In this document: positions 35,611-55,990 of the stretch, piece after piece
How the letters are laid out: the number at the start of each line of letters is the position of its first letter
How positions within the stretch are numbered: the stretch's first letter is position 1
Source of the DNA: a virus
Taxonomy: Duplodnaviria; Heunggongvirae; Uroviricota; Caudoviricetes
Length of the DNA stretch: 64,000 nucleotides
Reading direction: 5' to 3' (one strand)
Virus record (IMG/VR): IMGVR_UViG_3300001598_000045
Location: 1-64,000 of that record
The notes under the pieces: model-generated
Database searches by the model: none
Seen by the model: only the letters and a program-made list of their open reading frames with translations
Told to the model about the DNA's origin: nothing
Program-made: the position numbers and the translations under genes

Positions 35611-35700
35611 TAGACTATATCTTTTACTATAATATATAGTCGTTGAGCCAAATTTATTTTGGTTGCTGATTTAATATTAATATCTTTCCAGCAATTCTTT
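35611..35700 (-). ncRNA. group I intron catalytic core h (P/Q + R/S elements), compact
   Basis: Minus-sense P AGAATTGCTGGAAAG, Q TAAATCAGCAACC, R GGCTCAACGACTATATA, S AAAGATATAGTCTAAA. These match the group I consensus elements, with P4 pairing TGCTGG/CAGCA and P7 pairing GACTAT/ATAGTC. Confidence 0.55.
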
Positions 35701-35721
35701 ATATTTTGTAACACCCTACTA

Positions 35722-36012
35722 TTAAGTGTTATCTAGATCCCGCATTAAATATCCTGAGTTAAAGATTACATTTATATTCATTCTAAATAGTGTATCTTTA
35801 TTCACCCAAGGGTAGTTAACGGGAATATCTAGCAATCTAACCTGCTCCTTTATATAATCTTCAGTTCTTTTTGCTTCTCCTGATTTATATATAGTAGCAC
35901 ATGGTCTTCCTTTAGTATATATAAGACGGGCTGAATATAGAGCGTTGACAGATAATATTTTTCTAGCACCTAATATTATACTTATTTCATGCTTTTCCAT
36001 ATTAAATACCAA
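35722..36012 (-). CDS. hypothetical protein, possibly an intron-associated ORF remnant
   Basis: 96 aa; overlaps the helicase stop by 11 nt and sits directly upstream of core h. Confidence 0.35.
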   Translation of the reverse strand: MVFNMEKHEISIILGARKILSVNALYSARLIYTKGRPCATIYKSGEAKRTEDYIKEQVRLLDIPVNYPWVNKDTLFRMNINVIFNSGYLMRDLDNT

Positions 36013-37414
36013 ATGGATTCTTTAAGCCAGATGTATTTATATTCTGACCTTGTGCTGCAGCCATATTATTCATCATCTGTTGTGTATTTTGTTTAATCTT
36101 ATCATATTGAACATTAAAAGCATGAATCATATTATCTATTTCTTGCTCTGTATATTCTTTCTCTTCTTGTTCTAGACGAAGCTGATCATATACACCTTTT
36201 GGTATCTCTTTAAATCTACCATTACTTAAACGAATAACATAAGCTTTACTTCCTACTCTACCACGACGGGCTTTAGGAATTTGCATAATATATAAATGAT
36301 TTGGACAGTCAGGATTTACATTAGAGATAGTTAAGATAGCATCTACTACTTGTTGTTTTTTAGAACTTTCTCCTATATCTGCTAATCCAATTAATTTATC
36401 ATAAGCAAATACTTTAGGTTGAGATGCTATAATACATAATTTACCCGACATACTCAGCTTAGTAAATGTATTATAAACTTCTCCAAAGGTGTTATACATA
36501 GAATCTCCTTCCGTAACACCTTTTATAACTCCATCATAGTCTACAAAAACTACAGAATAATTTCCTGCCATAACTTTCTCAACTATATCATCTGCACTAA
36601 CCTGTCCAGCTGCATTGATTGAGACTTCCAAATTATTCCCAACCATCTTTTTTAAATTATCATAAATACCACTAATGTTTTTATAAGCATTAGCAAATGG
36701 AATACCAAATGCAATAGAACCCATACGCACAATAAAGTCTTTCATATTCATATCAGCCAAGGATACATATAATACTTTTTCTCCGTGACTAGCCATCCAA
36801 CATGCTAGATTCATTGCAAATAATGTTTTACCAACACCAGGAGGAGCTGACACTAGGAATAATTGTCCTCGCTCTATCCCATTATGTGGTGCAAAAGCTC
36901 TATTAATTAGATCTACATTAGTTGAAATAGCACCTTTACTTTCATCTGCTATAATAGTATTTATATCTACTCTATCAAATGGTGTTGCAGTAAATATTTC
37001 TATATCTGAACTATGATAATCTACATTTTTAAGATATTTTAGATAATCACTTGGACTTTCTTGATATAAACGGCCTGCTTTTTGTAAAACTGCTGCTGCA
37101 CATATATCACTTAAATATTTTGCTGCAGGTGCTATTTGTTCTTTTGAATATAATTTCCATCTTCTAATATCATCCATTATCTTAGCACTTTCTTCAGGAG
37201 ACTTATTACATCTCATTAAAATAGACTTAAATAATGGAGAACCAATTGCATCTAATTCATATGTTTTAATAGCACTTATCAATTCATTAACAAGTGGATT
37301 AGTCATTGTATTAGGATTGGTTTGATAATAATATTCGATGTTAGATATATTCTGTTTTGCTGTATTAAAAATATACTGATTAAAAAACGAATATAATAAC
37401 TCTAAATTTTCCAT
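36002..37414 (-). CDS. DnaB-family replicative DNA helicase
   Basis: Walker A VSAPPGVGKTLFAMNLA, Walker B VVFVDYDG, IIASQ, and an arginine-finger region ESSKKQQVVDAILTI. Confidence 0.8.
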   Translation of the reverse strand: MENLELLYSFFNQYIFNTAKQNISNIEYYYQTNPNTMTNPLVNELISAIKTYELDAIGSPLFKSILMRCNKSPEESAKIMDDIRRWKLYSKEQIAPAAKYLSDICAAAVLQKAGRLYQESPSDYLKYLKNVDYHSSDIEIFTATPFDRVDINTIIADESKGAISTNVDLINRAFAPHNGIERGQLFLVSAPPGVGKTLFAMNLACWMASHGEKVLYVSLADMNMKDFIVRMGSIAFGIPFANAYKNISGIYDNLKKMVGNNLEVSINAAGQVSADDIVEKVMAGNYSVVFVDYDGVIKGVTEGDSMYNTFGEVYNTFTKLSMSGKLCIIASQPKVFAYDKLIGLADIGESSKKQQVVDAILTISNVNPDCPNHLYIMQIPKARRGRVGSKAYVIRLSNGRFKEIPKGVYDQLRLEQEEKEYTEQEIDNMIHAFNVQYDKIKQNTQQMMNNMAAAQGQNINTSGLKNPFGI

Positions 37415-54003: not shown

Positions 54004-54224
54004 TCTTTATCCCTGCGGCGGAATTCTTAAGCTCCTGATAATGATTTATTTGCTTTAATACTTCGCCGGCTGTAACTAGAATGGTAGTAATAGCCGATAA
54101 AACTTTCAATACATTTCCTAATTTCATAATAAGTTGCTGATTAATTGTTAAAAATTTTATATCTTTTTCACACTATTCCCAGCATTTTTCTGCTTTTTGA
54201 TAGTGATGCTCCAATTCTTCATAT
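54004..54224 (-). mobile_element. intervening sequence with a group I P/Q module and a divergent GC-rich candidate P7
   Basis: P/Q AAATGCTGGGAA...TTAATCAGCAAC at 54133-54187. Candidate P7 strands cagccggcg at 54064-54072 and cgccgcagg at 54013-54021. Confidence 0.4.
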
Positions 54225-55214
54225 TTAAACACCACCTTGCTTAATAGACTGTAATGATCTATTTTCTACACTATGTAATATCATGTCATGTTCTGCATAT
54301 GAACCTAACAATGATCCACGTGTAATAACTGGTTTTTCATCTATACCCGAAACAATCAATTGAGGCATGTTTAAGGCGGATATTGATGAAATTTTAACTC
54401 GTCCAGCTCGATTCAATTCATTCTTTAAATCTTCTGTAAATTTGCCTTCTATTTCTTTCTCGTATTTAGCATATTTATCAGTTAAGATTGCAAGTTTCTG
54501 TTGATCCGTTAATTCCTTCGAGTCAGCTACTTTACAAATTTCTTTATAAAGTTCTGTATTGGTATCTACATATAATGTCTTATAGTCAAATGTTACTACA
54601 CCTGCTAAAGTCACTACACGAAGAGCAAATATTTGTAATTCTCTTCTCTTCTCAACACCATCTTCTTGCCCATTTAAATAAGCTGATAACTTCGCTGCGG
54701 CTTTTGCATCAATTCGTTTAAATGGGTCTGATAAAATATGAAGATCTTCTAAGTCTGCATCCAATATTTTAGAAATTCTTATTCTACCATAACTTGTTGT
54801 TTTACTTTTATAGTTCACATTTCCAATTTTGCCTGTATATGTAATTGGAGTACCTATTTTTATTTTCTTATCAACCTCTACATCTTTTAATAATTGAACA
54901 TAATCTGTATAGAAATGTTTTGGATTCTCTAAGTCATCCTCATTTTCCAATACATATTCTGTTGCCACTGCTAAACCATTAAGAGTTTCATGATTAAATG
55001 GAAATATAGGCTTTCCACTTTTTTTATATACATTTACATAACGAGGCGACATTTTTTTATATGTATCCTCTGCAATTTCTTCTGGAACAAGCTGCAGGGC
55101 TACGGTATCGCCGTCAAAATCGGCATTTAATGGCTCACAAACTGCAATTGGATAGTGAATTGCATAATCGTCAACTAATCTTTGCTTCATACAGAATATT
55201 GAATATTCGTGCAA
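54225..55214 (-). CDS. rpoC: RNA polymerase beta' subunit, middle coding segment (catalytic NADFDGD)
   Basis: AIHYPIAVCEPLNADFDGDTVALQLVP aligns to bacterial [27 protein letters not shown]. Confidence 0.85.
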   Translation of the reverse strand: MHEYSIFCMKQRLVDDYAIHYPIAVCEPLNADFDGDTVALQLVPEEIAEDTYKKMSPRYVNVYKKSGKPIFPFNHETLNGLAVATEYVLENEDDLENPKHFYTDYVQLLKDVEVDKKIKIGTPITYTGKIGNVNYKSKTTSYGRIRISKILDADLEDLHILSDPFKRIDAKAAAKLSAYLNGQEDGVEKRRELQIFALRVVTLAGVVTFDYKTLYVDTNTELYKEICKVADSKELTDQQKLAILTDKYAKYEKEIEGKFTEDLKNELNRAGRVKISSISALNMPQLIVSGIDEKPVITRGSLLGSYAEHDMILHSVENRSLQSIKQGGV

Positions 55215-55990
55215 TGATGGTTGGCGATCAACTCATGTTTTGTCGAATATATTTCAATTCAACCACAGACTATATTTTCTATTACTAGTTTTATCCATAG
55301 TCTTTGAGCTTAAATATAATTTTTAACTTCTAAATTTAAGTTTTTATTTTCTTTTGTTTTTTGTAATAAGAAATTATAAACTTGTCTTTTTTCTTTTTTA
55401 TCCATGAATTCAGTATATCTAGTACCGGATTCATCTAATTGTGTATATTTTTGGAATTTTATAAATGTATCAAATTCTAAATCTGCTAGTTCATATGTAG
55501 GTCCTGAAATAATAAGAAGTACTTTACCACCTAAAATTTGTTTCTGTGTTCGTCTTTCCCAGTCTTTAGAGAAACCTACTTTAATACTAGATGGAAAATC
55601 TAGCATATAAATATAACCATTATCTCCTTGAAATTTATTATGGAGTAAGGTTCTATTAGCTTGTCGTTGATGATACTCTGATCCATATCCGTGAGAAGAT
55701 TTATCTAAAAGATTTCTTTCACGGATACTTTTCATTCTTTCTCTCTTTTCATCAGATACATTCCACAAACCAATCTTAGAGGTACCATTATATCTTCCTT
55801 CTTGATGTAGTTGTTTCATGTGTTCTGATCTATTGAATGTCAGATCAGAGTATGAATTTTGTCGTAATATAATCATATCTGTCTGTTTTTTAATTAATAG
55901 AGATTCCAGTTAAAAATAAATTTAAGCTGCTGATTCCTTAACTTCCACGTTAAAGTTCCAGCAATTCATAAAATTCGAATTGGCATTTTC
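55215..55990 (-). mobile_element. group I intron (core a) carrying the GIY-YIG-like ORF between the P/Q and R/S elements
   Basis: P/Q TGAATTGCTGGAAC...GGAATCAGCAGC at 55927-55968. R/S GCTCAAAGACTATGG...GAAAATATAGTCTGTG at 55264-55309, abutting the ORF stop. Confidence 0.6.
55310..55876 (-). CDS. GIY-YIG superfamily (T5orf172/MUG113-like) endonuclease candidate, intron-encoded
   Basis: C-terminal GYIYMLDFPSSIKVGFSKDWERRTQ resembles the N-terminal domain of ORF 9908-10525. The basic N-terminal region KRERMKSIRERN is NUMOD3-like. Confidence 0.55.
   Translation of the reverse strand: MIILRQNSYSDLTFNRSEHMKQLHQEGRYNGTSKIGLWNVSDEKRERMKSIRERNLLDKSSHGYGSEYHQRQANRTLLHNKFQGDNGYIYMLDFPSSIKVGFSKDWERRTQKQILGGKVLLIISGPTYELADLEFDTFIKFQKYTQLDESGTRYTEFMDKKEKRQVYNFLLQKTKENKNLNLEVKNYI

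Follow-up and report, generated by a model that had tools for sequence, protein, structure and literature searches.

Eight putative compact group I introns, half of them without P8, in the RNA polymerase and RusA-like genes of a huge AT-rich phage

We analyzed a stretch of 64,000 nucleotides of tailed-phage DNA (positions 1 to 64,000 of IMG/VR record IMGVR_UViG_3300001598_000045, Caudoviricetes; hereafter the window). The window is AT-rich (~28% GC), and from ~4.7 kb onward nearly all of its genes lie on the minus strand. Eight repeat modules on this strand are very likely the catalytic cores (P4-P6 and P3-P7) of eight spliced group I introns, a reading to which we assign a probability of roughly 0.9. 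Three of the introns (a, b and c) lie in the gene for the beta' subunit of an RNA polymerase (RNAP), four (d, e, f and g) in the gene for the beta subunit and one (h) in a gene for a RusA-like resolvase. Intron boundaries, helices, restored reading frames and conservation of the family in related phages can all be read from the DNA. The modules had been interpreted as group I intron cores in an earlier note on the same stretch, and that interpretation proved essentially right.

The modules are built from the group I consensus elements P, Q, R and S. Exact copies of the P motif AATTGCTGGAAC are present at four sites and variants at three more; with up to two mismatches allowed, 17 matches were found against 5.3 expected, a count reached in none of 100 shuffled sequences. 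Q, R and S motifs occupy matching positions beside P in the expected order. A regular expression for P..Q followed by R..S within at most 1.6 kb picked out eight modules and no others in the 64 kb; every one is on the minus strand and sits where the earlier note had placed it. An unfiltered search with R1, a covariance model built from the family, recovered the same eight. The next R1 match in the window (32974-33098, 19 bits, E 0.8) was taken as chance because it falls inside coding sequence and the motifs are absent from it. Introns d and f have the same P/Q module and c has it with one inserted T, which agrees with the near-identity of the three proposed previously. The cores are also as compact as had been suggested, with measured P4-to-P7 spans of 81-108 nt instead of 90-115 nt. 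Core b had been described as having only a clear P/Q module and a GC-rich candidate P7. Its canonical pair, GACTAA...GGTATAGTC, is found at 53959..53916, 175 nt downstream of its Q and with a 6-bp P8, and the GC-rich candidate falls within a 48-aa open reading frame (ORF) of the P6 loop.

Intron boundaries were set by three criteria: a U as last base of the 5' exon, a G as last base of the intron, and joined exons that reproduce the homologous protein. As references we used related phage loci (L001, L003, L005, L013 and L056) and database proteins (P0008, P0016, P0018 and P0055). All eight introns begin directly after a U and end in G, at the sole positions that restore both the frame and the homologous protein sequence, and in silico removal of all eight leaves three uninterrupted ORFs, encoding beta', beta and the RusA-like protein (Table 1). 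The cores had been delimited to 35611-55968; this location holds, with the introns reaching beyond their cores to a true extent of 35581-56045. All junctions were checked against uninterrupted homologues, and each gave a gap-free match. At junction a, P0016 and P0055 read ...KQIVLVNRQPSLH; at junction b, P0008, P0018 and L005 read SIKQSGVPSSGYLTRQ; and at junction c, L056, L001 and L003 read LSGDVMTETILGLL, with L056 reading SGDVMTETILGLL, identical to the predicted spliced product. Across junctions d and e together L003 reads DLIDIADTPINNNTN, at junction f L003, L001 and L013 read GSKVTNxYGGKGVIS, and at junction g L013 reads YSTINRKI. Ten homologues of 264-280 aa align across RDLDNT^LKLVQDG at junction h (the caret marks a splice site here and below). 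The predicted ligated sequences are GATAACACT^CTTAAATTAG for h and GCGGAT^ACTCCGAT^CAATCAAAAC for d/e. Two alternative junctions were tried and rejected. For intron a, a first placement after CUAAU (VLIVDRQ) was given up for one after GUGCU (VLVDRQ), which fits the homologue length and gives better P1 and P10 helices. For intron c, the reading DVII^TETIL, which would place an A-U pair at the splice site, was discarded because L056 reads SGDVMTETILGLL exactly. The ORF-less introns d, e, g and h measure only 144-188 nt, and in g P1 and P3-P9 are all packed into 146 nt.

Table 1. Host genes, introns, intron-borne ORFs and short exons in the window.
Feature	Coordinates	Strand	Size	Location and content	Structural elements
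beta' (RpoC-like) gene	51659..57181	-	1116 aa spliced	4 exons, 3 introns (a, b, c); contains NADFDGD	
Intron a	55234..56045	-	812 nt	beta', between ...KQCVL and VDRQPSLH	P1 CGUGCU/GGUACG; P/Q 55963..55928; R/S 55302..55268; P8 3-bp stem, GUAA loop
Intron a ORF	55310..55876	-	188 aa	P6 loop; candidate GIY-YIG-like homing endonuclease	
Intron b	53864..54228	-	365 nt	beta' bridge-helix region, between ...SIKQGGV and PTSGYLTRQ	P1 GGUGGUGU/GCAUCACU, 8 exon + 2 intron pairs; P/Q 54184..54135; R/S 53959..53916; P8 6 bp
Intron b ORF	53981..54127	-	48 aa	P6 loop; hydrophobic helix and charged tail (MKLGNVLKVLSAITTILVTAGEVLKQINHYQELKNS...); not endonuclease	
Intron c	51711..52705	-	995 nt	near beta' 3' end, between ...SGDV(M) and TETILGLL	P1 GUGAU/GUUGU; P/Q 51829..51801; R/S 51770..51742; no P8
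Intron c ORF	51847..52659	-	270 aa	between P1 and P3, frame of upstream exon; HNH/NUMOD3	
Last beta' exon	51659..51710	-	52 nt	16 full codons after split Met codon, plus stop	
beta (RpoB-like) gene	46263..51031	-	1053 aa spliced	5 exons, 4 introns (d, e, f, g)	
Intron d	49884..50071	-	188 nt	beta, after ...DLIDLAD	P1 CGGAU/GUCCG; P10 ACUC/GAGU; P2 8 bp; P/Q 50021..49994; R/S 49952..49922; no P8
Micro-exon between d and e	49876..49883	-	8 nt	ACTCCGAT; codons T, P and part of I	
Intron e	49694..49875	-	182 nt	beta, before NQNTNIQNSL	P1 CGAU^U/GGUCG; P10 CAAU/AUUG; P2 5 bp; P8 5 bp; P/Q 49832..49802; R/S 49766..49725
Intron f	47317..48407	-	1091 nt	beta, between GSKVTNR(Y) and GGKGVIS	P1 AUAGAU/GUCUAU; P/Q 48376..48349; R/S 47379..47350; no P8
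Intron f ORF	47390-48316	-	308 aa	P6 loop; HNH	
beta exon between f and g	47202..47316	-	115 nt	...GGKGVISAVTPDEEMPIMVDESGKQRRVEVVMNPYST...	
Intron g	47056..47201	-	146 nt	beta, between NPYST(I) and NRKIAGV	P1 UACUAU/GUAGUA; P3-P9 including 3-bp P8; P/Q 47168..47140; R/S 47121..47086
RusA-like gene	35038..36000	-	272 aa spliced	2 exons, 1 intron (h)	
Intron h	35581..35724	-	144 nt	RusA-like gene, between RDLDNT and LKLVQDG	P1 UAACACU/GGUGUUA, 7 exon + 1 intron pairs; P/Q 35693..35664; R/S 35641..35613; no P8

The boundaries so defined are matched by RNA structure. Each of the eight introns forms a P1 helix of 5-10 bp in which the U at position -1 is paired with a G at intron offset 8-19 nt, so that the P1 pairing and terminal G that the earlier note had proposed to look for are found in every case. 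The intron guide also covaries with the exon. At site b, exon GGT^GT faces a guide A and in L003 exon GGC^GT faces a guide G; similarly, at site d exon GCG GAT is paired with GUCCG and in L001 exon GCT GAT with GUUAGCG, both exon changes being synonymous. When d, e, g and h were folded without constraints together with short stretches of exon, the minimum free energy structures contained P1, P4, P5, P6 and P7, as well as P2 (d, e), P8 (e, g) and P9 (d, e, g), with folding z-scores of -6.9 for d and -2.6 for both g and h. In ~1 Mb of related huge-phage loci, model R1 finds 36 family copies. Across 34 distinct family members 97% of P4 and P7 cells are paired, which bears out the proposal that P and Q form P4 and R and S form P7. 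Compensatory changes were seen in P4 (GC to AU in 4 sequences, plus a GU intermediate) and in P7 (AU to GC in 2), and none of 500 shuffles attained the P4/P7 covariation score. The remaining core helices were assessed without an alignment, by comparing the longest helix formed by strands of the same intron with that formed by strands from different introns (n = 40). Matched strands formed longer helices than mismatched ones in P3 (5.6 vs 4.2 bp), P6 (6.7 vs 4.2) and P5 (4.5 vs 3.5), with permutation p <= 2e-4 for each.

Detection with Rfam, which had been suggested as a check, gave a mixed outcome. At gathering thresholds the whole window contained no group I match, only a tRNA-like one, and at E <= 10 the 34.5-57 kb region again had no group I match. 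These standard scans were empty because of speed filters combined with low scores; narrow scans with RF00028 (Intron_gpI), in which the filters are laxer, recovered sub-threshold matches. Introns g (33.8 bits, E 2e-7) and d (28.7 bits, E 1.5e-5) were matched at full length, and e (19.6 bits) and h (17.3 and 12.8 bits) in part. The RF00028 alignment of d places P1, P2, P3, P4, P5, P6, P7 and P9, and its 57-nt P8 region is reduced to a single base.

Several observations weigh against eight functional introns. None of the Rfam scores attains the gathering score of 50 bits, the best being the 33.8 bits of g, and the narrow RF00028 scan of intron b gave no match. Intron c has a weak P1, four of its five exon pairs being wobbles, and P10 comprises just 0-4 bp. 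Above all, P8, a canonical core helix, is absent from four of the eight introns (c, d, f and h); the other four retain it, with 3 bp in a and g, 5 bp in e and 6 bp in b. The spacer of 16-18 nt that separates P7 from P7' in the P8-less four cannot accommodate a hairpin. This spacer is bimodal among 49 family members. Eighteen members, c, d, f and h among them, have 14-18 nt, enough for P3' and J8/7 only, and lack P8; the other 31 have at least 21 nt (21-43 nt but for two outliers) and form a P8 hairpin of 3-9 bp. Orthologues differ in the same way: at site a, a 3-bp P8 is present in the window and none in L001, and at site b, P8 has 6 bp in the window, 9 bp in L056 and is missing from L001 and L003. 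The J8/7 and P7 sequences are fully conserved among P8-less members. Since the helix is present in some orthologues of a site and missing from others, these data suggest that P8 is here a dispensable peripheral element.

The only natural P8-less group I introns that we found described in the literature are the L1949 introns of myxomycete nuclear rDNA, which have a truncated core without P8; there, loss of P8 accompanies failure to self-splice in vitro, and splicing is believed to depend on host factors (PMC3679873). This precedent weighs against the P8-less introns of the window as well. The two sets are otherwise dissimilar. L1949 introns are large, vertically inherited, host-factor dependent and reside in eukaryotic rDNA, whereas those of the window are minimal and interrupt phage protein-coding genes, and unlike L1949 the window's family has a P8 that ranges from 9 bp to none.

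The likeliest rival holds that all eight modules are group I introns and that c, d, f and h are not autonomous ribozymes, a phage or host protein being required for their folding or as a substitute for the missing P8 contact. It draws on the 16-18 nt spacers into which a hairpin cannot fit, on the Rfam alignment of d with its P8 region down to 1 nt, and on the absence of in vitro self-splicing in L1949 (PMC3679873). However, J8/7 and P7 are fully conserved in P8-less members, orthologues at one site occur both with and without P8, and neither d nor h encodes a candidate maturase; on balance we consider protein dependence rather unlikely. That the members without P8 and P2 (h with its 144 nt, c, d and the ORF-deleted core of f) are autonomous self-splicing ribozymes is a slightly better prospect, which we put forward tentatively and at less than even odds. 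If true, they would be the smallest natural group I introns, with a minimal architecture of P1, P3, P4-P6, P7 and P9 in which P8 is dispensable. One octanucleotide could moreover serve two such ribozymes, the first using it in P10 and the second in P1. This is the 8-nt exon ACTCCGAT between d and e, whose first four nucleotides belong to P10 of d (ACUC/GAGU) and whose last four belong to P1 of e (CGAU/GUCG). The same 8-nt micro-exon between two introns is also present in L001.

Decay offers a second rival. Some of the eight could be relics that no longer splice, leaving the host gene a pseudogene or another RNAP copy to serve in its place. The weak P1 of c, the four missing P8 helices and the Rfam scores under the gathering threshold would be in keeping with this. 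On the other side, the exons are intact and keep 60-85% identity with relatives over all junctions, the core motifs are invariant, and the host genes are essential and single-copy within the window. We therefore regard decay as very improbable.

The host genes themselves point to spliced introns. Unspliced, the polymerase ORF pieces are fragments of RNAP beta' and beta along with endonuclease ORFs, with breaks within the bridge helix, immediately ahead of NRQPSLH and within GxKGV. Gene callers miss the 52-nt last exon of beta'. With the introns removed, Pfam Rpb1_2 (PF00623) rises from 19.6 and 28.3 bits on separate pieces to 67.6 bits on spliced beta', and Rpb2_6 (PF00562) from 32.8 bits on the largest piece to 64.2 bits on spliced beta, both above cut-off. 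Because the breaks hit conserved motifs, some segments are as short as 8 nt and 115 nt, and the Pfam scores rise, the polymerase segments are, on sequence grounds, exons and not separate subunits. The tandem cores that had been noticed at the beta boundaries are real, and belong to separate introns with these 8-nt and 115-nt exons between them. A polymerase truly split as in phiKZ/AR9-type phages, with the repeats as mere intergenic hairpins (resembling miniature inverted-repeat transposable elements or repetitive extragenic palindromes, or acting as terminators) that only look like P/Q/R/S, is scarcely credible and appears already contradicted by the sequence: gene callers do give separate ORFs, and remote relatives among Staphylococcus jumbo phages do have split RNAP subunits, but the breaks lie within invariant motifs, the pieces have no start codons at conserved sequence, the same regions are uninterrupted in relatives, and all eight excisions are in frame and accompanied by guide-exon covariation.

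Spliced beta' and beta would each be one polypeptide, unlike the split subunits of phiKZ/AR9-type phages. This family is represented in public protein databases by fragments alone, such as P0001, which begins at an internal Met and has lost the NRQPSLH motif. Among 50,697 phage records megablast found nothing that matched the polymerase region; with tblastn, the only matches were to endonucleases and, at ~24% identity, to beta of Staphylococcus jumbo phages. In the RusA-like gene, the Pfam family PF05866 spans junction h with 20.3 bits (E 9e-4), under its cut-off of 22.8 bits, and PHROG 140 matches across the same junction with E 1.4e-3. The RusA match emerges only across the spliced junction, and homologues of this host gene are named RusA-like by JGI.

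Taken as group I introns, the eight elements would act as follows; their splicing chemistry and endonuclease activity are predictions. The introns would be transcribed with the minus-strand genes of a huge AT-rich phage. In each, the guide would pair with the end of the 5' exon to form P1, with the U.G wobble marking the point of cleavage. There a free guanosine held in P7 would then cut the RNA, the terminal intron G would take its place and the exons would be joined, giving one full-length product each for beta', beta and the RusA-like protein. The endonuclease ORFs of a (GIY-YIG-like), c (HNH) and f (HNH) probably drive homing.

Of these ORFs, the ones in a and f had been taken for homing-endonuclease genes, which is supported for f, that of a being a candidate; the HNH ORF of intron c, upstream of P3 and in the exon frame, had gone unnoted. 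The c ORF matches Pfam NUMOD3 (61.5 bits) and PHROG 655, homing endonuclease, with E 4e-44, and the f ORF likewise matches NUMOD3 and PHROG 655 (E 1e-41). On the two ORFs NUMOD3 scores range over 38-61 bits, above the cut-off, and HNH and HNH_4 score 16.9 and 18.2 bits, under theirs. The two HNH proteins are 38% identical and the surrounding ribozyme cores are closely similar, and the related ORFs differ in placement, that of c lying ahead of P3 and that of f inside the P6 loop. The ORF of intron a has a close homologue, P0249, an NCBI protein from a metagenome-assembled genome labeled 'Bacilli bacterium' on a contig of 394,002 bp. Since RNAP and RusA-like homologues are found on it too, this contig is probably a huge-phage genome binned as a bacterium. 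Peptides of 40-60 aa resembling the intron b ORF are encoded by same-site introns of L001, L003 and L056, and one is also found in the tail of P0055. Because the same-site introns of three relatives encode a similar peptide, the 48-aa product looks like a conserved intron-borne small protein other than an endonuclease. Small hydrophobic ORFs akin to it were also seen at 16009-16164 and ~24570-24704, both on the minus strand.

The eight introns share the P/Q/R/S consensus, homing-endonuclease ORFs in peripheral loops and conserved coding insertion sites with classical phage group I introns such as those of T4 td, nrdB and sunY, of the SPO1 and SP82 DNA polymerase genes and of Twort orf142; Twort also provides an instance of several introns in a single gene. 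Classical phage introns are in general 250-1000 nt long, with a full core including P8 and often P7.1/P7.2 and P9.x, whereas those of the window fall short of the RF00028 threshold. The Azoarcus pre-tRNA-Ile intron, a compact bacterial intron of ~205 nt used as a minimal model ribozyme, has kept both P2 and P8; g and h fall ~60 nt short of its length, and h lacks the two helices altogether. Very short exons between two group I introns are known from fungal mitochondrial cox1. Those mini-exons are organellar, whereas the 8-nt exon of the window contributes one part to P10 of the intron before it and the other to P1 of the intron after it, and is kept in a second phage.

Intron sites vary among relatives. 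L003 has an intron with an ORF of the 188-aa type after ELYAVRTK (8790-9590) and another after NRQP (9860-10000), and L013 has one after VVMNP (~4020-4170). L001 carries two tandem introns at the VVMNP site (17100-17420), probably flanking a YSTI micro-exon. Such heterogeneity fits active mobility.

A heavy intron load has been reported for the 'Jug' huge gut phages, whose genomes of 360-402 kb and 27-30% GC include an RpoC gene and, as a core gene, eIF-1A (PMC12880540). These phages average 18.5 group I introns per genome (mean length ~206 nt) and have many HNH and GIY-YIG ORFs and fragmented essential genes, and metatranscriptome reads confirmed splicing for about half of the predictions tested (PMC12880540). 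The relatives of the window are likewise on contigs of 250-394 kb, one of them with an eIF-1a gene beside the RNAP cluster, and for these reasons the window probably belongs to the Jug clade or to a neighbour of it. The Jug study stresses terL, nrdD and DNA polymerase rather than RNAP genes, and it presents no structural analysis, with P8 loss, 144-nt introns and the 8-nt exon unmentioned (PMC12880540). An HNH-bearing group I intron at a highly conserved site in an RNAP beta-subunit gene is known from Pseudomonas phage PhiPA3 (gp210; PMC11620839). PhiPA3 has one such intron in a split-subunit RNAP, whereas the window has seven, most of them ORF-less, in unsplit beta' and beta. Thus a high intron load in related gut phages and an HNH-bearing group I intron in a jumbo-phage RNAP beta gene are already known (PMC12880540, PMC11620839); graded loss of P8, introns of 144-146 nt and an octanucleotide exon shared by two introns may be new.

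Elsewhere in the window, the tRNA-like gene at 24356-24439 (minus strand) scores 38.7 bits with the Rfam tRNA model, over threshold, and ARAGORN calls nothing there. Its acceptor, D and T arms look normal, and in place of the anticodon arm there is a stem of 9 bp, UUAAUUAUA/UAUAAUUAA, capped by a 9-nt loop. An ORF-poor stretch of ~800 nt lies at 16943-17766, with further gaps within 16.1-19.1 kb; sensitive scanning of 15.9-19.2 kb against Rfam turned up no RNA family. Finally, a strong inverted repeat at 45533-45609, in the gap between two minus-strand genes, has a U-run after it and so looks terminator-like. One of its arms contains GATATAGTCTA, the same string as the S element, and it gives spurious miRNA-family matches on both strands.

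For annotation, the finding means that beta', beta and other genes of this family have been deposited as strings of hypothetical fragments, and that removal of the introns yields an ordinary polymerase with two large subunits, not a phiKZ-type split enzyme. For RNA biology, natural group I introns of 144-188 nt, together with orthologue pairs at one site with or without P8, would test the minimal core, and introns this compact are also of interest as candidates in ribozyme and circular-RNA engineering. For phage biology, the presence of seven introns in two essential transcription genes, and the variation of their sites from one relative to another, fits the emerging view of intron and endonuclease warfare among co-infecting jumbo phages.

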